DNA from: Escherichia phage vB_EcoD_Opt-719
Sequence record: OL539451.1
Strand: one strand, 5' to 3'
DNA: 48,302 bases
A model generated the notes under the pieces. That model ran no database searches. It was not told where the DNA came from and saw nothing but the letters and a program-made list of their open reading frames with translations. The translations under genes and the position numbers were made by a program. Shown one piece after another: positions 2,702 through 23,378 of this stretch (its first letter is position 1; each line of letters starts with the position of its first letter).

Positions 2702-2725
2702 AGCCCCTACTCAGGGGCTTTTTTA
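2702..2725 (+). terminator. rho-independent terminator
   Basis: hairpin AGCCCC-loop-GGGGCT followed by TTTTTT. Confidence 0.7.
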
Positions 2726-2738
2726 TTGGAGAAATTAC

Positions 2739-4007
2739 ATGGTAAAAGCAGACAGCTACGCAAACATCTTTCTTAACGGGAGTGATGGTAGCGAGATTTA
2801 CGGAAGGTTTGGCGGCCTTGGCTTAACAGCTCCAGCGCAGCTTGAGCAGCTTTACGTCAGTAGCGCACTGGTTCGTCGAATTATTGATATCGTGCCAGAG
2901 GTTGCACTTGGCGCTGGCTTTAACATTGAGGGTATCGACGATGAAGGTGCTTTCTGGTCGCGCTGGGATGATTTAGACCTTTCAGATAGTGTAATCGACG
3001 CACTGGCGTGGGCAAGATTATACGGTGGAGCTGCTGTAGTGGCAATTGTCAAGGATGGCAGGGCGCTAACTAGCCAGGTTAGGGAGGGAGCTGAACTTGA
3101 AACTATCCGCGTCTACGACCGACAGCAAATTAAGGTTCAGACTCGAGAGGAGAATCCACGTAACGCGCGATTTGGAAAGCCAGTTACCTATCGCATTACG
3201 CCAAATGGTTCGGCCACATTCTACGACGTGCATTACACTCGCTGCCACATCATCGATGGCGAAAGGGTTCCGAACAACCTACGCCGCAACAACGATGGTT
3301 GGGGCGCAAGCGTGCTAACTGGTGACTTAATCGACGCGATTGACGACTATCAGAACTGTGAGAGACTGGCTACTCAGTTACTTCGTCGAAAGCAACAGGC
3401 TGTGTGGAAAGCGAAAGGTTTGGCTGATTTATGCGATGATTCTGATGGATTTGGTGCAGCTCGCTTACGCCTGGCGCAGGTTGATAATAACAGCGGCGTT
3501 GGTCAGGCTATTGGTATTGATGCAGAGAGTGAAGAATATGACGTTCTTAACTCTGACATTGGTGGTATTGATGCATTCTTGAGCCAGAAGTTCGACAGAA
3601 TCGTTGCCCTGAGCGGCATCCATGAAATCATTCTCAAGGCCAAGAATACTGGAGGTGTATCAGCTAGCCAAAACACAGCCCTTGAGACTTTCTATGGTTA
3701 TGTTGACCGCAAGCGCAAGTCAGACCTGCTTCCTTTACTTGGTTTCCTGATTCAATTTATTGTCACTCAGGACGAATGGTCAGTTGAATTTAATCCACTA
3801 TCTCAAGTTAGCGATAAAGATAAATCTGAGATTCTAGAGAAGAACGTTAACTCAGTTTCAGCTCTTGTTGCTGGTGGCGTGATGAATACTGATGAAGCCC
3901 GTGATACACTACGAGCTATTGCGCCAGAGGTTAAGCTGCAAGATGGTGATATTGAGCAAACCGCTCAGGGGAAAACAGTCGAGGAGGTAGTGATTAATGA
4001 AGAGTAA
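2739..4007 (+). CDS. putative portal protein
   Basis: 422-aa ORF directly after terminase region, acidic C-terminus; portal call by position and size, family not verified. Confidence 0.55.
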   Translation: MVKADSYANIFLNGSDGSEIYGRFGGLGLTAPAQLEQLYVSSALVRRIIDIVPEVALGAGFNIEGIDDEGAFWSRWDDLDLSDSVIDALAWARLYGGAAVVAIVKDGRALTSQVREGAELETIRVYDRQQIKVQTREENPRNARFGKPVTYRITPNGSATFYDVHYTRCHIIDGERVPNNLRRNNDGWGASVLTGDLIDAIDDYQNCERLATQLLRRKQQAVWKAKGLADLCDDSDGFGAARLRLAQVDNNSGVGQAIGIDAESEEYDVLNSDIGGIDAFLSQKFDRIVALSGIHEIILKAKNTGGVSASQNTALETFYGYVDRKRKSDLLPLLGFLIQFIVTQDEWSVEFNPLSQVSDKDKSEILEKNVNSVSALVAGGVMNTDEARDTLRAIAPEVKLQDGDIEQTAQGKTVEEVVINEE

Positions 4008-5106
4008 AATGCGTTATGACAGCGCTAAAGTAAAAGCCCGTTTCGATGAGAACGGGTTTCTAGTGGACACTCCAGTGGTTGCTCGTGTTGGTGTTCAAAC
4101 ATACTACATGCCAGATGGCTCAGAGCGCCGAGAGTTCCGACCAGCATCAGAGGTGTTTAAATCCGATTCCCTGCAAAGCTATCAGGGCAAGCCGCTTACG
4201 CTTGGTCATGTAGTTGTTAATTCAGATAACGCCAAGGATGTTGTAGTTGGAGCAGTATCTGGTGCAGCTATGCGTCAGGATTCTACAGTTGTCGTTCCTC
4301 TAACAGTTTACGATAAGCAGGCAATAGAAAAGGCTAAGTCTGGCGTTGCTGGTGAGCTATCGGTTGGCTATAACACTGTTGATATTGAGTCTCCTGGCTG
4401 GGGTAGTAACGAAACGGGTGAGTATAAGCTTGATGGAGAGTACGCAAGCCAGGATGATATCCCTGCTGATTGGGTACGCTTTGATGCCCTGCAAACAAAC
4501 ATCGTTGTGAACCACATTGCTCTGGTATATAAAGGCCGCGCGCAAGTAGCTAAACTGAATCTGGACGCGGAACAGGAAAACCCGTATACTGATACCGTTC
4601 AATCAAATAAAGAGGATAAATTGATGATTAAGATTAAACTGGATGGCGAGCAGGAGTTCGAAATCGCCCCGGAAGTTGCTAAGCACATCGAAGCTGTTAA
4701 AGCTGATGCAGAACAGGCAAAAGCAAAAGCTGACACCCTTGAAGCTGAGCGTGACGCACTGAAAGCTAAAGTTGATGGCATTCCTGCTGAAATTGAATCT
4801 GCCGTAGCGAAAGCTAAAGCTGATGCTGACGAACTGGCCGCTCTGGTTGCTACCGCTGCAGAAGCTGGCGTTAAAGCTGATGGTATGGATGCTAAAGCAA
4901 TCAAAGTTGCTTACGTTAAAGAAGTATCCGGCCTTGACGTTGCAGAGAAATCTGACGCATACATCGATGCGGCCTTTGATATCGCTAAAGATAGTGATAA
5001 AATGGCTGAAGTCCGCAAAGCAGTTGTTGCTGCGGATAAATCTGACGCTGCCGACGCGCCTAAGAAATTAGACCCGCGCGCTCGCCTCGCTAAATTGAAA
5101 AAATAA
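3997..5106 (+). CDS. putative head maturation protease/scaffolding protein
   Basis: 369 aa; globular N-terminal domain then long Ala/Lys/Glu/Asp-rich coiled-coil-like C-terminus; GAGGAGG RBS; between portal and capsid genes. Confidence 0.45.
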   Translation: MKSKMRYDSAKVKARFDENGFLVDTPVVARVGVQTYYMPDGSERREFRPASEVFKSDSLQSYQGKPLTLGHVVVNSDNAKDVVVGAVSGAAMRQDSTVVVPLTVYDKQAIEKAKSGVAGELSVGYNTVDIESPGWGSNETGEYKLDGEYASQDDIPADWVRFDALQTNIVVNHIALVYKGRAQVAKLNLDAEQENPYTDTVQSNKEDKLMIKIKLDGEQEFEIAPEVAKHIEAVKADAEQAKAKADTLEAERDALKAKVDGIPAEIESAVAKAKADADELAALVATAAEAGVKADGMDAKAIKVAYVKEVSGLDVAEKSDAYIDAAFDIAKDSDKMAEVRKAVVAADKSDAADAPKKLDPRARLAKLKK

Positions 5107-5117
5107 GGAGTCTTAAT

Positions 5118-5588
5118 ATGGCAATTCGTCGTCAAGCTACTGCTGGTATGGTTGCAGATACCTCTCTGTACAATATCGATGGTGCCTGTGTAATGTCTAC
5201 CGGCGTAGTCCAGGGTGTCGGTTATGCTGTTGGTGTCGGTTCTGTTGATGCTGATGGTCACAAAGTTCTGATTTCCGCTGTTGCTGATAACGTATACGGC
5301 GTCCTGGTGAAGTCACACTACGAAAGCCCGCGTGGTTCTTACGGTGGTGTTGTTGGTAACATTGATAACTTCCAGGTCGCAAACGTAATGACTCACGGTC
5401 GCATCTGGATGGTTACCGGCCTTCCTTCTGCTCCTGCATTTGGTAGTGCTGTTACCATTGATACTAATGGTTCCGCAACAAGCGGCGGCGCAGTCACTAC
5501 CAACTGGACCTTCGCCGGTGGTTTCCAGGCAGCTGACACTGTGTCTGGCGAACCAGCACTGGTTGAAGTTCAGGTTATTCAGAAATAA
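5118..5588 (+). CDS. putative head decoration or minor capsid protein
   Basis: 156 aa Gly/Val/Ala-rich; AAGGAG RBS; strong terminator downstream; function by position only. Confidence 0.35.
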   Translation: MAIRRQATAGMVADTSLYNIDGACVMSTGVVQGVGYAVGVGSVDADGHKVLISAVADNVYGVLVKSHYESPRGSYGGVVGNIDNFQVANVMTHGRIWMVTGLPSAPAFGSAVTIDTNGSATSGGAVTTNWTFAGGFQAADTVSGEPALVEVQVIQK

Positions 5589-5604
5589 TTAGCAAAGCTA
5601 AACT

Positions 5605-5628
5605 AAACCTCCTCCGGGAGGTTTTTTT
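5605..5628 (+). terminator. rho-independent terminator
   Basis: hairpin AAACCTCC-TCCG-GGAGGTTT followed by T-run. Confidence 0.75.
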
Positions 5629-5640
5629 ATGCCTGTAAAC

Positions 5641-5649
5641 TGGTACAAT
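5641..5649 (+). promoter_or_regulatory. extended -10 promoter element TGgTACAAT
   Basis: TGnTACAAT right after terminator and ~25 bp before RBS of the SGNH gene; identical element recurs at 48196-48204. Confidence 0.4.
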
Positions 5650-5678
5650 TAGTTTCACTTTAAATCGGAGGAATGAAA

Positions 5679-6965
5679 ATGGCTAGCTTCTTGGAATTGG
5701 TAAGAGATAACATTGATAAGGGTTTAGCGACAATGCAGCCCGTTCAGTTATCAACTGAGTTTACTGCAATTAAAGAGATTAGGGTAGCAACATCAATCAC
5801 CACGCCACAAACAATATCAAGGAGTGATGAAACAAAGCTAATGTATACAACTTACGGGCTTGCTAACGTAGCTGGTGGTTCATACACAGGACAATCGCCA
5901 AACGGAGTCCAGATGAAGGTTGAGTTTATGACTGACTCAACTTTGTTCGAAATCAAAACCATCGGCTCAATCGGCACTTACTCAATTTTTATTGACGGCA
6001 AACTGGTAAATGCTGATGCATTCGCTACGCCAAATGGAGAGGCGGTGAGCTGGATGCAAGTTAAAGCTAATGACGGAGTTATCAGCGGGAAACTTCGACA
6101 CGTTGAAATCTACGGCATCAACTCAGCATTCGGAGCCTTCGTGTTTGGTGCTGGCGACACGGTTAGTCGTGAAATCTCAATCAAGCGCCCGCTTATTTAT
6201 CAGATGGGTGATAGTTATACTTATGGAACTGGTGCTGGATTCAGGACTCAAGCTTACGGCTCATCTCCTGCCGTAAATGACTTCTATGCATTCACCAGGT
6301 CTCTTGGTTTTGATGGTATTGCTGAAGGAATTGGTGGATCAGGATGGAACTCAGCTGCCGGTCAGTATCCAATGTCTCGCGTGCAAACAAGGCTTGCAAA
6401 GCTAAATCGCAAGCCGTCAGTTATCTCCTGGGCGCTTGGATATAATGATGCCGCTGCCATCCTGACTGGAACAAATAGCCAAAAGCTACTAGTTTCGATG
6501 GGTGAGTGTCTCGCTGAGACTAGGAAGGTTTATAGTGACGTTCCAATCATCCAGATTAGCAGCGCAACGCCGAAGGGAATTACCACTGGAATTCAGAAGG
6601 TAATTGATTTGGTTAATGGTTTTTGTTCTGATAACGACATTCCAGTAATTAACATAAGTAGCTATGTTACTAATGCTAACTCGGCAATTTATACAGGAAC
6701 AGACAACGTTCACCCGGGAACTCTTGGCCATGAGTTTAGGGGAATGGCAATGGCTCGCGAGGTTCTGCTTGCAGCCTCGGGTCAGAAATCACTAACAGTC
6801 CCAGTTACGCCGCGTGCATTTAACGTGGTAGCAAGGCTGACTAAAAGTTTTGGAGTTACAATCTTCTCTGGTGTAGTAAATGCTATTGATGAGAATGATG
6901 TTGCCGGACAGCTATACTTGCAGACTGGTGCTCGAGTGGAAATTCTCTCAGTATCTCGCGCCTAA
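5679..6965 (+). CDS. SGNH/GDSL-family hydrolase domain protein
   Basis: ordered GDSL blocks in C-terminal half: GDSYTYG, GYND, DNVHPGTLGH; ~170-aa non-catalytic N-domain; start set to ATG 5679 (GGAGGA RBS spacing); track start 5673. Confidence 0.65.
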   Translation: MASFLELVRDNIDKGLATMQPVQLSTEFTAIKEIRVATSITTPQTISRSDETKLMYTTYGLANVAGGSYTGQSPNGVQMKVEFMTDSTLFEIKTIGSIGTYSIFIDGKLVNADAFATPNGEAVSWMQVKANDGVISGKLRHVEIYGINSAFGAFVFGAGDTVSREISIKRPLIYQMGDSYTYGTGAGFRTQAYGSSPAVNDFYAFTRSLGFDGIAEGIGGSGWNSAAGQYPMSRVQTRLAKLNRKPSVISWALGYNDAAAILTGTNSQKLLVSMGECLAETRKVYSDVPIIQISSATPKGITTGIQKVIDLVNGFCSDNDIPVINISSYVTNANSAIYTGTDNVHPGTLGHEFRGMAMAREVLLAASGQKSLTVPVTPRAFNVVARLTKSFGVTIFSGVVNAIDENDVAGQLYLQTGARVEILSVSRA

Positions 6966-18563: not shown

Positions 18564-18612
18564 TTAGTGTAGAATGGCACAAATGGTTAAACAAACAACG
18601 AGGTTATATGAT

Positions 18613-21600
18613 ATGGCCGATTTGCCAAAGATTTATGGAAGCAAGGGTGGTGGCAAGAAGCCACACACACCTGTGGAGCAAGAAGATAACCTGGTTTCAC
18701 TAAACAAGATTAAGGTGCTGCTGGCCGTTGCTGATGGTGAGGTTGATTCTAGCTTCTCACTTAAGGATGTTTACCTTGCTGACGTTCCAGTGCAGAACCA
18801 GGACAACTCATTCAACTATGAAGGTGTAACCGCTGAGTTTCGCCCAGGCACTCAATCTCAAGATTACATCGCCGGGCTAGACGGTGAGGCATCAGAGATT
18901 CAGGTTAGTCGTGAGATTAACAATGATACACCTTACATCATCGCAGTTAACAACAGTCAGCTTTCAGCAATCCGAGTCAAGCTGTTCTGGCCTCGACTCG
19001 TTAAGCAAGAAGAGAATGGAGATTTAAATGGCACAACATGTGAATATGCAATCGATTTATCAGTTAATGGCTCAGCGTACACTGAATATACCAGAGGCGT
19101 GGCTAACGGTAAAACTACAACAGGTTACGACCGCAGTATCAGGGTTAACTTACCAGCCGAGTTTAGCAGCGCTCTTGTTCGTATTAGGAAGTTAACGCCA
19201 GACTCAACAAGCAGCACACTGGTTAACGGAATGCAGATTACAACCTATCAGGAAGTAATCGACGCTAAGTTCCGCTACCCTCTTACAGCGCTTGTTTACG
19301 TTGAGTTCAGCTCCGACCTATTCCCCAATGGCATCCCAACGATAGCTATTAAGAAAAAGTGGAAGCTTATCCGCGTACCGACAAACTACAATCCAGAGAC
19401 AAGGACTTATAGCGGCACATGGGATGGTACCTTTAAGATGGCGTGGTCTGACAACCCGGCCTGGGTTTTATATGACCTTGTGGTTAGTCAGCGTTACGGA
19501 TTAGATCAGCGAGAACTTGGTGTAGAGATTGATAAATGGGGTCTGTATGAAGCTGCGCAATTCTGTGACCAGATGGTTCCTGATGGTAAGGGTGGAATGG
19601 AGCCGCGATATACTTGCAACGTTGTAATTCAGCAGAAGGTTGAAGCATACCAGCTTATTCGTGACATCTGTTCTATATTCCGCGGTTTAACCTTCTATGA
19701 TGGTGAGCAAATCGGGATTGTTGTAGACAGGCCGCGCCAGCCAAGTTACGTGTTCACCAATGATAACGTTGTTGATGGATTGTTTAACAGGACATTCTCT
19801 AGCGATAAGTCTCTTTACACGACTGCAAACGTTCAGTTTGATGACGTAGAGAATAACTATCAGCAAGATGTTGAACCAGTGTTCGACCTTGAAGCAACTC
19901 GCCGCTTTGGTTATAACCCTGTAGACCTGACCGCAATTGGATGCGTAAGGCGTAGTGAAGCTAACCGTCGAGGTCGCTGGTTGCTGAAAACAAACCTTCG
20001 AAGTGAAACGGTAACGTTCACAACTGGCCTCGAAGGGATGATTCCTATGATTGGTGATGTAATTGCTGTCAATGACCAGGCTTGGTCAAGCAACTACACA
20101 TTGAACCTTTCGGGTCGAATCGTTGAGGCTACTGGTCTGCAGGTTTTTGTTCCTTTCGCTATTGATGCGGACCCAGGCGACAGGATTTTAATCAACAAGC
20201 CCGATGGAAGCCCGGAGTACAGGACTATCGCTTCAGTATCTGCAGATAAGCTTACGCTTGAACTGAACACAGCATTCAGTTTCACGCCGCAGCCGGATAC
20301 GGTATTCGCAATCGATAAGCAGAATCTGGCGTTGCAGCAGTATGTGGTGACCGGGATTCAAAAAGCTAACACGGATGGAGAGGACTCATTCCAGTACAGC
20401 ATCACAGCTGTTCAGTATGATCCTAACAAGTACGATGAGATTGACTACGGAGTAAACATCGATGACAGGCCAACAAGCATCGTTGACCCTGACAGGATTT
20501 TGCCACCGCAGAACATCACCGTTACTAGCTACAGCAAGGTAGTGCAGGGCTTAAGCGTTGAGACGATGGTTATTGGTTACGACAAAGTGCAGTATGCGAA
20601 AACATACAACGTACAATGGCGTAAGAATAACGGAAACTGGATTAACGTTCCTGAGACGGCTAACACTGAAGTTGATATTGAAGGTATCTACGCTGGCATT
20701 TACGACGTCAGGGTTCGTGCTGTAACTGACCAAAAATCAGTATCGGCATGGTCAGAAATCACAACTGTTAGCCTCACTGGCAAAATTGGAGAACCATCTG
20801 CGCCGCCTGTAATTACGGCTTCTGATGATGAGGTTTTCGGAATTAGGGTTAAGTGGGGCTTCCCTACTGACTCAGCGGATACTGCGTACACCGAGCTTCA
20901 GCAGGTTCCTGATAATGGTGACGGTACATACAATCCAGAGAATGCATCACTGCTTACCCTGGTTCCTTATCCTCAGTACGAATACTGGCACACAACTTTA
21001 CCAGCAGGTAACGTGAGGTGGTACAGGGCGAGGATTATTGACAGGATAGGTAACGTATCTCCATGGACTGATTTTGTCAGGGGTATGGCATCTGATGATG
21101 TAAGTGCAATCATTGGCGACATCAAGGTTGATATCGAAAACTCTGATGGTTACAAGTATCTTCTCCAGAACGCCATTGATGCAAATACTGACATCCAGAA
21201 CCAGGCCGAAGCAATAATTGAGAACGCATTAGCAAACGATACTGACGTGCGCGTTATGAAGCGCGAGAATGGAGCAAGGAAGGCTGAATATCGCCAGGCT
21301 GTTAGTTTGATTGCTGATGAAACTCAGGCGCGTGTAAATGCTCTCACAGAACTTAAAGCGCAGATTGATGATGAGATTGTTGGTCAGATTACGACAATTG
21401 AAACTGCTTTAGCTACAGAGACCGAGGCAAGGGCTACTGCTGATACCGCTCTAAGCGCAAGGCTTGGTGATAACGAGGCGGCTTTGAATCAGAAGCTTGA
21501 CTCTTACGCCACGGTCGAAGGCGTTGGTGTTCAGTACGGCGTTAAGCTAGGTCTGAAGTACAATGGAGTTGAGTATGGCGCTGGCATGAGCATGGAGTTA

Positions 21601-21969
21601 ACTGGTAGTGGTGGAAATGTTCGCAGTCAGTTCATTTTCGACGCCAACAGATTTGCAATCAGTAACGGCATTAGTTCTGGTTCCGGTCAGTGGTCACTGC
21701 CTTTTGTTGTCGATAATAACCAGGTTTTCATTCAAAGCGCTGTGATACAGGACGGTTCAATCACTAACGCGAAGATTGGAGACGCAATTCAGTCTAACAA
21801 CTTTGTAGCAAACTCTGTTGGCTGGAGGCTTGATAAGGCTGGAACTTTCGAAAATAACGGTTCTACGCCTGGCGAGGGTAAAATGAAGCAAACTAACCAG
21901 ACAATTTCGGTTGCTGATGCTAACGGAAGGCTTCGTGTTCAGATTGGCCGTTTGACTGGAGTTTACTAA
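18613..21969 (+). CDS. central tail fibre / host specificity protein (J-like)
   Basis: ~1118 aa; N-terminus GSKGGGKKPHTPVEQEDNL resembles lambda J N-terminus; start ATG 18613 (track 18574). Confidence 0.8.
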   Translation: MADLPKIYGSKGGGKKPHTPVEQEDNLVSLNKIKVLLAVADGEVDSSFSLKDVYLADVPVQNQDNSFNYEGVTAEFRPGTQSQDYIAGLDGEASEIQVSREINNDTPYIIAVNNSQLSAIRVKLFWPRLVKQEENGDLNGTTCEYAIDLSVNGSAYTEYTRGVANGKTTTGYDRSIRVNLPAEFSSALVRIRKLTPDSTSSTLVNGMQITTYQEVIDAKFRYPLTALVYVEFSSDLFPNGIPTIAIKKKWKLIRVPTNYNPETRTYSGTWDGTFKMAWSDNPAWVLYDLVVSQRYGLDQRELGVEIDKWGLYEAAQFCDQMVPDGKGGMEPRYTCNVVIQQKVEAYQLIRDICSIFRGLTFYDGEQIGIVVDRPRQPSYVFTNDNVVDGLFNRTFSSDKSLYTTANVQFDDVENNYQQDVEPVFDLEATRRFGYNPVDLTAIGCVRRSEANRRGRWLLKTNLRSETVTFTTGLEGMIPMIGDVIAVNDQAWSSNYTLNLSGRIVEATGLQVFVPFAIDADPGDRILINKPDGSPEYRTIASVSADKLTLELNTAFSFTPQPDTVFAIDKQNLALQQYVVTGIQKANTDGEDSFQYSITAVQYDPNKYDEIDYGVNIDDRPTSIVDPDRILPPQNITVTSYSKVVQGLSVETMVIGYDKVQYAKTYNVQWRKNNGNWINVPETANTEVDIEGIYAGIYDVRVRAVTDQKSVSAWSEITTVSLTGKIGEPSAPPVITASDDEVFGIRVKWGFPTDSADTAYTELQQVPDNGDGTYNPENASLLTLVPYPQYEYWHTTLPAGNVRWYRARIIDRIGNVSPWTDFVRGMASDDVSAIIGDIKVDIENSDGYKYLLQNAIDANTDIQNQAEAIIENALANDTDVRVMKRENGARKAEYRQAVSLIADETQARVNALTELKAQIDDEIVGQITTIETALATETEARATADTALSARLGDNEAALNQKLDSYATVEGVGVQYGVKLGLKYNGVEYGAGMSMELTGSGGNVRSQFIFDANRFAISNGISSGSGQWSLPFVVDNNQVFIQSAVIQDGSITNAKIGDAIQSNNFVANSVGWRLDKAGTFENNGSTPGEGKMKQTNQTISVADANGRLRVQIGRLTGVY

Positions 21970-22016
21970 CTGATAGAATGGGCAAATGGAATTGCCCTTA
22001 TCAACAGGAGGAATTT

Positions 22017-22325
22017 ATGGCTGAGTATGGGATTGCTACATATGATGCAAATGGTAATTACAATAACTATGGGATTAAGCCAGTTACGGTTGTTGGCTTT
22101 GATTTCCTTTCCGCTGGCAATAATTCTTACTCGTTTTCTTACTCAATACCAGAAGGCACAAAGGTTGGATTCACTATTAGTCTGGATGATGGGGCGATAT
22201 CTGGACCAGCAAGGAGAATAGTGGCAAGTGGGAACACAATAACGATAACACCAACATCAACACCAGGACCTGGTGTTTACCCATCATCAAATTGCTACCT
22301 CATAGCTTATCTGGAGAATCAATAA
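22017..22325 (+). CDS. hypothetical tail-associated protein (102 aa)
   Basis: AGGAGG RBS; N-terminus MAEYGIATYDANGNY paralogous to next gene; follows J-like gene. Confidence 0.45.
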   Translation: MAEYGIATYDANGNYNNYGIKPVTVVGFDFLSAGNNSYSFSYSIPEGTKVGFTISLDDGAISGPARRIVASGNTITITPTSTPGPGVYPSSNCYLIAYLENQ

Positions 22326-23017
22326 TGGCTGATTACGGAGCTTTTATAGATGTAAATGGAAATCCATTCATAACGCCACTATCAACACCATTCGCACTTT
22401 ACTCAAAAGGAACAATCGCATCAGGTAATGTTAACAACACCCAGTATGCTGATAGATATGTTGACATTCCTCTCAATGTTCCAGTGATAGCTTTTTGCAA
22501 AACGACAAACACAAACAATGGTACAGCTTTGTCAGCATTCACATTTAGGGAGGGATCCAACATTGGAAAGATCTACTTTCAGGGTGTTAATCCAGCAAAT
22601 CAGGCGTTTGTTATGACGTACTACATATTTGCGATATTCCCACAGACTCTACCTGATTGGGGTATGGCTATATGGGATGCGCAGGGTAAATTGATACTTA
22701 CAAATGAAACAAAGGTTCTTAGCGACCTAGCAACAATTGGCACGCCAGGTTATCAATCTGGTGGTTTAAATATAGACGTAACATTGCAAGGAAGTTGGGC
22801 CGTGGTTCCAACAACCCTGGGGAATAGTCAGATACAAATAGGAACGCTACCAACTGGTCAGCCAGTTATAACAAATGCGACAGCTGGAACATCCTGCAGG
22901 TACAACGGAGTGCAGACAAGAATAAACGCGCAGTCAACACGTGGCTCTGGAAATGTGTTAAGCACAACAAATAACGGAAATGTAATAACAGCAATTAACA
23001 CATCAGCATACGACTAA
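22325..23017 (+). CDS. hypothetical tail-associated protein (230 aa), paralog of 22017..22325
   Basis: N-terminus MADYGAFIDVNGNPF; ATG overlaps upstream TAA (TAATG). Confidence 0.45.
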   Translation: MADYGAFIDVNGNPFITPLSTPFALYSKGTIASGNVNNTQYADRYVDIPLNVPVIAFCKTTNTNNGTALSAFTFREGSNIGKIYFQGVNPANQAFVMTYYIFAIFPQTLPDWGMAIWDAQGKLILTNETKVLSDLATIGTPGYQSGGLNIDVTLQGSWAVVPTTLGNSQIQIGTLPTGQPVITNATAGTSCRYNGVQTRINAQSTRGSGNVLSTTNNGNVITAINTSAYD

Positions 23018-23040
23018 GCCCCTTTCGGGGCTTTTTCTTT
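23017..23040. terminator. bidirectional rho-independent terminator
   Basis: hairpin AGCCCC-TTTC-GGGGCT with T-run; separates convergent plus structural genes and minus lipoprotein gene. Confidence 0.7.
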
Positions 23041-23041
23041 A

Positions 23042-23263
23042 TCAACCTCCACAATCGTGGTCTTTAAAATTCCGCTCAGAGACGTACTGAAACGAGAATG
23101 GATATCCGGCCCTAAGTAAAAACTCCTCACCGCGCTTCTGCGTGCCAAAAACATAAACAGAGTAACTCATTCCGCTTGACTCATAAATCGCCGTACAAGT
23201 GCGCTCCGGCATCGTAGAGCACCCGCCTAACGTCATTGCTGCGATAACGATTAATTTTTTCAT
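23042..23263 (-). CDS. small lipoprotein, candidate Cor-like superinfection-exclusion factor
   Basis: 73 aa from ATG 23263 (track GTG 23272); signal peptide MKKLIVIAAMTLGGC with lipobox LGGC; AAGGTG RBS; small lipoprotein next to tail genes. Confidence 0.45.
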   Translation of the reverse strand: MKKLIVIAAMTLGGCSTMPERTCTAIYESSGMSYSVYVFGTQKRGEEFLLRAGYPFSFQYVSERNFKDHDCGG

Positions 23264-23273
23264 CTCATTCACC

Positions 23274-23378
23274 TTAGAAACCGTTAAAGTTTGAAGCCAG
23301 CAGCAGAACCCAAACGAAGAAGCTGGTAGTTGCTACGCCGAAGATTGCAGAGATTAAGTTAGTGGTTAAGTTAGTCAT
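23274..23378 (-). CDS. hypothetical small membrane peptide (34 aa)
   Basis: MTNLTTNLISAIFGVATTSFFVWVLLLASNFNGF; AAGGA RBS; stop abuts lipoprotein start; same minus-strand operon. Confidence 0.3.
   Translation of the reverse strand: MTNLTTNLISAIFGVATTSFFVWVLLLASNFNGF

Follow-up and report, generated by a model that had tools for sequence, protein, structure and literature searches.

Gene order and protein families at the locus

The window analyzed here is the whole 48,302-nucleotide stretch of DNA from Escherichia phage vB_EcoD_Opt-719 (OL539451.1), and the subject is a pair of adjacent open reading frames (ORFs), A (102 amino acids, aa) and B (230 aa), which lie directly 3' of the J-like tail-tip gene and converge with the superinfection-exclusion gene cor (Table 1). 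Over this locus the window is ~100% identical to Escherichia phages Phleasolo and Sadiya and to Klebsiella phage Opt-79, T1-like members of the Drexlerviridae. A and B are 72–74% identical to the T1 pair (A, 73.5% to the T1 protein), and B is 72% identical to its homologue in one related locus (L006) and 50% identical to that of Teewinot. A matched phrog_557 (E = 5.6e-27; residues 3–101 on the 100-position profile) and B matched phrog_425 (E = 1.1e-65; residues 1–230 on the 224-position profile). Homologues of A were present in 340 phage records, T1 included, and homologues of B in 348. A profile search with B against 1.84 billion (1.84e9) representative proteins returned only 116 clusters, in which nearly all full-length members were 204–241 aa long. 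The convergent Cor protein scored 46.2 bits against NCBIfam NF047972 (cutoff 31) and carries the lipobox LGGC.

Identification of the locus as FhuA-type follows from the ~100% match to T1-like phages, the identity with the T1 pair, the adjacent cor gene, and the literature, in which this type of locus is tied to FhuA and to receptor specificity by its position (PMC8594841; bioRxiv 10.64898/2026.04.02.716166). The FhuA-type "bona fide RBP locus" known from T1 and other small siphoviruses, RBP denoting receptor-binding protein, has the same position after a gpJ homologue, the same two protein families, and cor (Maffei et al. 2021, PMC8594841; bioRxiv 10.64898/2026.04.02.716166; JLBYU60 in PMC12309495). 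Identity of A and B to the JLBYU60 and Teewinot proteins is about 50%, and nothing material sets the window apart from this locus type, of which it is a member. Dependence of infection on FhuA is predicted from this homology and from cor. Published work already covers this phage and this type of locus, and discusses the two protein families as a putative receptor-binding protein plus an accessory protein. What is added here is incremental, namely the paralogy of A and B, a triple arm, a likely distant link to the DUF6453 family, and a testable docking model.

Neither A nor B had a Pfam match at E <= 1, and sequence and profile searches of solved structures gave no match for either protein. Foldseek searches of the Protein Data Bank (PDB) with the predicted models likewise gave no significant match for A or B; for A there was none at E <= 0.001, the best phage matches being Sf6 tailspike C-domains (probability 0.77, template modeling score 0.40). 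In a viral structure library the B model matched uncharacterized proteins only.

Table 1. Features of the A–B locus and its flanks in the window.
Feature	Position	Strand	Details
J-like tail-tip gene	18574-21969	+	Pfam FNIII-A_GpJ, Phage-tail_3, Phage_Tail_Tip
Last 54 codons of J	21807..21969	+	specificity-linked J tail, ending ...QTISVADANGRLRVQIGRLTGVY
Promoter-like site	21952..21979	+	TTGACT-16-TAGAAT with TG before the -10 hexamer; consensus scan, 10/12 matches; pattern match only
Shine-Dalgarno sequence of ORF A	22006..22011	+	AGGAGG, 5 nucleotides before ATG 22017; read from the sequence
ORF A, 102 aa	22017..22325	+	ATG 22017, TAA 22323-22325; PHROG 557; N-terminal arm, residues 1-25; six-strand beta-sandwich, residues 25-101
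Arm of A	22017..22091	+	MAEYGIATYDANGNYNNYGIKPVTV
TAATG stop/start overlap, A to B	22323..22327	+	one shared base; read from the sequence
ORF B, 230 aa	22325..23017	+	ATG 22325, TAA 23015-23017; PHROG 425; candidate FhuA-binding protein; arm N, residues 1-26; beta domain, 23-104; arm M, about 98-136; beta domain, 135-225
Arm N of B	22325..22402	+	MADYGAFIDVNGNPFITPLSTPFALY
Arm M of B	22616..22732	+	...YYIFAIFPQTLPDWGMAIWDAQGKLILTNETKVLSDLA
Terminator-like hairpin between convergent B and cor	23016..23033	+	AAGCCCCTTTCGGGGCTT, then T run
cor	23042..23272	-	superinfection-exclusion lipoprotein of FhuA-dependent phages; phrog_1119, E = 3.9e-27
Small membrane ORF, 59 aa	23274..23453	-	same strand as cor and upstream of it; a single hydrophobic segment (Kyte-Doolittle 2.14)

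A repeated arm and related modules in A and B

The two ORFs and their TAATG overlap are present as described in the initial annotation, and the A/B junction overlaps by 1 or 4 bases in most of 70 related loci. The "near-identical N-termini" that had been reported for the two proteins reflect a shared motif that is real at the family level, but the wording was too strong for this pair, in which 9 of 14 positions are identical with one gap, a match that on its own is not significant (BLASTP E = 0.06). The best pairwise BLASTP match of the A N terminus lies inside B, at residues 109–121 (LPDWGMAIWDAQG; 5 of 13 identities, E = 0.026). Profiles from narrow family alignments (97 and 179 database relatives; Neff, the effective number of sequences, about 2.5) had in common only a motif of 12–14 columns, and the strongest match was again that of the A N terminus with the internal site of B, which scored 32, whereas 120 column shuffles reached at most 21.4. 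Domain similarity between A and B was not found with these narrow alignments and required diverse ones, and HMMER models built from a single arm recovered none of the others when the window was translated in six frames, so that the repeat is visible to profile–profile comparison only. At narrow depth, the profiles are those of a short motif occurring three times and not of a duplicated gene.

This motif belongs to a hairpin of 12–28 residues, here termed the arm, which occurs at the N terminus of A, at the N terminus of B (arm N), and internally in B at about residues 105–135 (arm M). In distant B homologues the N-terminal and internal arms are plainly repeats (e.g., FGFAIRNPSGRLWMSPEVSPM versus YGLAIYNASGRLVYSAQMRPL), and at the profile level arms N and M of B align over 28 columns (probability 90%, E = 1.7e-6). 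With diverse profiles, to which the partners of distant B homologues had been added, the similarity extended beyond the arm: hhalign aligned A 1–98 with B 1–102 (probability 95–96%, E 1e-9 to 2e-8), and a second match paired A 1–50 with B 109–158 (probability 85%). When the arm was kept and the core columns were shuffled, the highest score was 37.2 as compared to 49.9 for the real alignment (0/200), and the cores alone scored 16.9 against a shuffled maximum of 11.0 (0/200).

Structure prediction agrees with the profile alignments. In the AlphaFold2 models, A consists of an arm followed by six strands and the first module of B of an arm followed by seven strands, six of which match those of A in order, with module lengths of 102 and 104 residues. 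The ancestral unit has a beta-hairpin arm at its N terminus ([YWF]-G-h-x-h-[WYF]-[DN]-x-x-G...) and then a small beta-sandwich; A has one such unit and B two in tandem. By these comparisons A and the first B module are paralogues, and B contains an internal duplication of this module; the evidence is strong for the arms and modest for the cores. The proposal of tandem paralogues therefore holds at the profile level, with A corresponding to the first of two B modules, but not as a simple whole-gene duplication followed by divergence. The divergence that had been noted beyond the N termini is only partly borne out: a relationship between the cores can still be detected, and the arm occurs in B a second time.

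In both families conservation is highest in the arms, with mean majority fractions of 0.81–0.86 as compared to 0.51–0.64 in the cores (family A: arm, 0.81, core, 0.64; family B: arm N, 0.82, following core, 0.51, arm M, 0.86). The mean pLDDT (predicted local distance difference test value) of the A model was 88.7, lowest in the arm. In the B monomer model pLDDT fell below 50 only at residues 1–20 and 107–130, corresponding to the two arms, and both beta domains were confidently predicted. Conserved segments that remain unplaced in a monomer model are typical of regions whose folding requires a partner.

J tail, cassette exchange, and related receptor-binding proteins

Of 80 related loci, at least 70 contain A and B together, and their junctions overlap. 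Each of the 10 distant homologues of B that were examined has a gene directly upstream that encodes 84–113 aa as called (92–104 aa where complete); this gene starts with the arm motif in nine of the 10 loci, the tenth being cut by the contig end, and a J gene or J-type tail adjoins the pair in seven, i.e., wherever the contig reaches. By gene content, these comparisons show A and B to be an obligate pair. A 337-aa protein (P0369) considered as an A–B fusion was rejected; it is instead a chimera in which a J-like fragment is joined straight to the second half of a B homologue, and is probably a deletion or assembly artifact.

Every locus with A and B also has a J tail of ~45 residues of the form ...GxGxMKxTNxTISVxDxNGxLRVQIGxLTG, including T1 gp33 (PDB 9l9p_S) and 9ze4_N. 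Among J-type fibers in recent PDB entries, chain N of 9ze4 (429 aa) has the same tail type, and chain D of 23gd comprises 1148 aa. The J protein of the window is 93% identical to that of Rogue1 up to about residue 1095 and diverges beyond, the LptD-type J of Rogue1 having a different C-terminal end. At the DNA level, homology to Rogue1 stops at 21806 and resumes at 23368, inside the 59-aa membrane ORF. The swapped block (21807–23367; 1.56 kb) holds the last 54 J codons, A, B, and cor, and this comparison shows that J tail, A, B, and cor were exchanged as one cassette in the T1-like lineage. The C-terminal tip of J was specificity-associated in a large screen (bioRxiv 10.64898/2026.04.02.716166). 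The expectation that the locus is one of host-range variation is borne out by the exchange relative to LptD-type Rogue1 between 21806 and 23368 and by the literature that links this position to receptor specificity. Hairpins of the arm type occur in the J tail too and are, at most, compatible with docking; a weak match to the arms (E = 3e-4) came from a different J segment, DKAGTFENNG.

In Rogue1, a single 320-aa protein on the other strand, accompanied by its own lipoprotein, replaces A and B. This protein belongs to Pfam DUF6453 (PF20051) and is homologous to the RBP of Oekolampad (RBP_Oeko), which has been solved with LptDE (PDB 9rpt). In the cryo-electron microscopy (cryo-EM) structure of RBP_Oeko–LptDE, residues 1–25, 113–142, and 206–234 were modeled from prediction, and the authors described the tail-proximal part as very poorly ordered (bioRxiv 10.1101/2025.07.07.663478); we take these to be the same regions. 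In the DUF6453 family conservation is highest in precisely these three modeled segments, which have the hairpin character of the A and B arms. The first (MPxGILIDxNDGRPxMxIT) resembles the N terminus of B and the third (GITMTNxAGQVTFST) its internal arm.

With the diverse B profile, B 55–158 aligned with DUF6453 162–253 (probability 79.5%, E = 1.5e-5), and arm M aligned with the third arm of DUF6453 (probability 94%, E = 2e-7). The real B–DUF6453 score was 42 as compared to a shuffled 95th percentile of 18.7, three shuffled outliers of ~133 over 11 terminal columns being an hhalign sequence-end artifact. The alignment is offset by 107 positions, near the 102-residue length of A, as would be expected if A plus B (332 aa) mapped collinearly onto a single chain (~320 aa). 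B is thus likely to be distantly similar, at the level of sequence profiles, to the LptD-binding RBP family DUF6453. The members of that family (DUF6453/Rtp44/RBP_Oeko of Rtp-like phages and Dhillonvirus; PDB 9rpt, 9rpw, 9rqi) resemble A plus B in occupying the same locus behind a J backbone that is 93% identical, in total size (320 aa versus 102 + 230), in having three conserved arm segments, and in a tail-proximal part that is disordered when free. They differ in being a single polypeptide, whose gene lies on the opposite strand together with one for an exclusion lipoprotein of its own, and in having a different J tail and a different receptor.

A further parallel was found at the YncD-type locus of phage IsaakIselin (MZ501077; L095, 6099–7473, minus strand), whose two proteins are 101 aa (MPGLQAWDASGNLVV...) and 217 aa (MSGFEVRNNAGVVLI...) long, the longer one with an internal GYLDVFDASGNLVWT near residue 105, so that arms occur at the same three places as in A plus B. 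This pair is followed by a signal-peptide protein and is inverted relative to J as compared with the window. On one distant contig (L089), too, the A–B pair (2717–3615, plus strand) lies on the strand opposite J (3650–6274, minus strand) and converges with it. The pair therefore behaves as an invertible unit, like the DUF6453 gene of Rtp-like phages.

The literature treats the small siphophage RBP families (FhuA-, YncD-, and LptD-type) as unrelated. We tentatively propose, as a possibility rather than as the expected outcome, that they share one docking design, in which three copies of a conserved hairpin arm would plug the trimeric J tail with pseudo-threefold symmetry, either in a single chain (DUF6453) or split 1 + 2 between A and B, and in which arm and J tail would be a portable connector for swaps of receptor-binding cores between phages. 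If so, one and the same protein would be naturally split into A and B, or fused in DUF6453.

Docking model, alternatives, and flanking features

On balance, the data favor a reading in which this T1-like phage (Drexlerviridae) has in A and B its FhuA-type receptor-binding module, docked on J through their arms. In the proposed mechanism, the arms would be tail-proximal docking elements that fasten an A–B complex to the end of the trimeric J fiber. A 1:1 ratio of A to B is favored because it gives three arms, as in single-chain DUF6453, for what would be three J chains. The resulting cap would turn a threefold fiber into a single asymmetric face, and the variable beta domains, chiefly those of B, would bind monomeric FhuA; binding may then trigger opening of the J fiber and tail tip. 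Cor, made in the infected cell, would block FhuA against superinfection. In LptD-type phages, the single-chain DUF6453 protein (~320 aa) would do the job of A plus B (332 aa). AlphaFold-Multimer modeling of the homologues from Dhillonvirus JLBYU60 favored the B-like protein as the FhuA binder, and in the modeled Dhillonvirus, Shiga toxin (Stx)-phage, and Pseudomonas homologues the large protein is a monomer in contact with all three J chains and with the receptor (PMC12309495). The earlier description of both proteins as receptor-binding accessory proteins accordingly gives way for B, which is more likely to be the RBP itself, by its likely distant similarity to DUF6453 and by this modeling.

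Several points weigh against this reading. The position of A and B on the T1-like virion, on J or on FhuA, is a prediction, and in the cryo-EM map of T1 the J protein is not resolved past residue 820. The published model uses three small proteins and one large one, as opposed to the 1:1 ratio favored here. The arm of A is not disordered in the monomer model (pLDDT 67–83), and the J-tail hairpin gave no significant profile-level match to the arms. With regard to paralogy, the A and B cores alone aligned with a probability of 12% (E = 0.002), most of the profile signal coming from the arm, and part of the resemblance could be convergent, as beta-rich fiber proteins often contain hairpins whose turn is Asp/Asn-x-x-Gly. 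The B–DUF6453 link is seen by profile–profile comparison only, being missed by Pfam and by HMMER profiles of B, which do not reach 9rpt, and concatenated A plus B aligned weakly with DUF6453 (probability 6–12%).

An alternative arrangement, which we regard as unlikely but worth serious consideration, is that the J tip bears a small collar of three A copies with each arm on one J chain, and that a single B caps the collar and binds FhuA, the arms of B making another sort of contact, B–A or B–J. For the JLBYU60, 24B, and Littlefixvirus homologues, AlphaFold2-Multimer models were built with three small and one large protein, the large monomer touching all three J chains (PMC12309495), and a trimeric PA0642 has been proposed on the distal beta-prism of the central fiber in the F2 pyocin. 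The authors of the former study, however, left the mode of interaction unsettled, and the trimer of the small protein scored worse. The A-like proteins were claimed there to be an immunoglobulin (Ig)-like tip domain resembling the lambda J C terminus (PMC12309495); in the PDB, Foldseek recovered no match of A to lambda J or to any Ig-like tip domain at E <= 0.001. The correspondence of the three arms of A plus B to the three of single-chain DUF6453 is fitted more simply by a 1:1 cap. It appears improbable, to a greater degree, that only B is a virion protein and RBP while A is a nonstructural assembly factor, which would bind B or the J tail through its B-like arm up to assembly and depart afterwards. 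A is small and translationally coupled upstream of B, chaperones are frequent in tail-fiber loci, and several downstream genes of F-pyocins are absent from the particles. Nothing was found, however, in support of a chaperone role, which the initial annotation had offered in the form of fiber-assembly factors; the arm of A is as conserved as those of B, the whole module fold is common to A and B, and all three arms are kept in the mature single-chain DUF6453 RBP. In the F7 pyocin, moreover, PyoF11 and PyoF12, which occupy the same position and are likened to A and B on that basis, are both essential and both found in particles.

Two further explanations have very little probability. One is that the N-terminal resemblance reflects chance or convergence (a generic beta-hairpin, a shared translation-start context) and that the genes are not paralogues. 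The single-pair BLASTP E value, the failure of one-arm models to retrieve the other arms, and the frequency of such motifs in beta-rich proteins would all fit this explanation, but the profile scores exceed those of all shuffles, the core alignment is collinear with agreement in strand order and length, and the arms of B are clear repeats over 28 columns in distant homologues. The other, which is scarcely credible, is that A and B are host-directed membrane proteins or morons comparable to lambda Lom, as suggested by the PHROG names "outer membrane protein" (557) and "membrane associated protein" (425) and by the position of lom directly after J in lambda. Neither protein has a signal peptide or hydrophobic segment (maximal 19-residue Kyte-Doolittle means, 0.53 and 0.91), both are all-beta soluble folds in the models, the published estimate of membrane affinity for homologues is low, and the pair covaries with the J tail. 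The PHROG 557 and 425 names, copied into many GenBank records, look wrong, and these misleading database names are corrected by the present analysis.

The preferred arrangement, an A–B cap docked by its arms on J, is reminiscent of three other systems. In F-type pyocins, PyoF11 and PyoF12 are encoded directly after the J-like central fiber, AlphaFold3 places both on the fiber C terminus, and their receptor-binding domains were structurally aligned to each other (PMC12874032). The pyocin fiber is homologous to the J of the window, which has a coiled-coil stretch comparable to that of the F7 pyocin; A and B are likened to PyoF11 and PyoF12 by position and function only, and the pyocin targets are not FhuA, unlike the predicted receptor of the window. 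Phage T5 presents a monomeric RBP, pb5, at the end of a trimeric straight fiber, where it binds FhuA; in the free protein the tail-proximal part is poorly ordered, and a lipoprotein, Llp, blocks FhuA afterwards (PMC9586334). Unlike A and B, pb5 belongs to an unrelated family, is encoded elsewhere in its genome, and is one chain of ~640 aa. In lambda, as proposed here, the receptor is recognized at the distal end of a homologous J fiber, but the binding domain lies within J, is trimeric, and binds trimeric LamB, whereas the J of the window ends in a short tail and separate proteins would supply binding.

T1-like phages often figure as candidates for therapy and as contaminants in laboratories, and the cassette would set which outer-membrane protein is used. 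If the arms are a universal connector to the J tail and the cores determine specificity, phages might be retargeted by keeping J tail and arms and exchanging the cores or the 1.56-kb cassette, and prediction of receptors from sequence could ignore the conserved arms. Arm docking would also give a concrete reason for disorder in the tail-proximal parts of free RBPs in structures. The finding itself concerns an already published locus and phage, to which the broader reading of a shared connector adds.

In the window and in other T1-like phages, J and A are separated by 43–48 nucleotides (101 in one locus) and A has its own ribosome-binding site. In most prophage-like relatives (L010–L081) the J stop overlaps the A start (distance −1 or +1), so that J, A, and B are all translationally coupled. 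A longer ORF A starting at ATG 21978 was dropped, the homologues beginning MAEYG or MxYG. The promoter-like site lies within the last J codons, just 5' of A, and could give transcription of A and B separate from the long tail operon. At about residues 860–975 (window about 21150–21500), a long helical stretch of J is rich in alanine and glutamate (ENALANDTDVRVMKRENGARKAEYRQAVSLIADETQARVNALTELKAQIDDEIVG...), and a beta region comes after it. The 59-aa membrane ORF on the far side of cor is annotated in JulesPiccard too.

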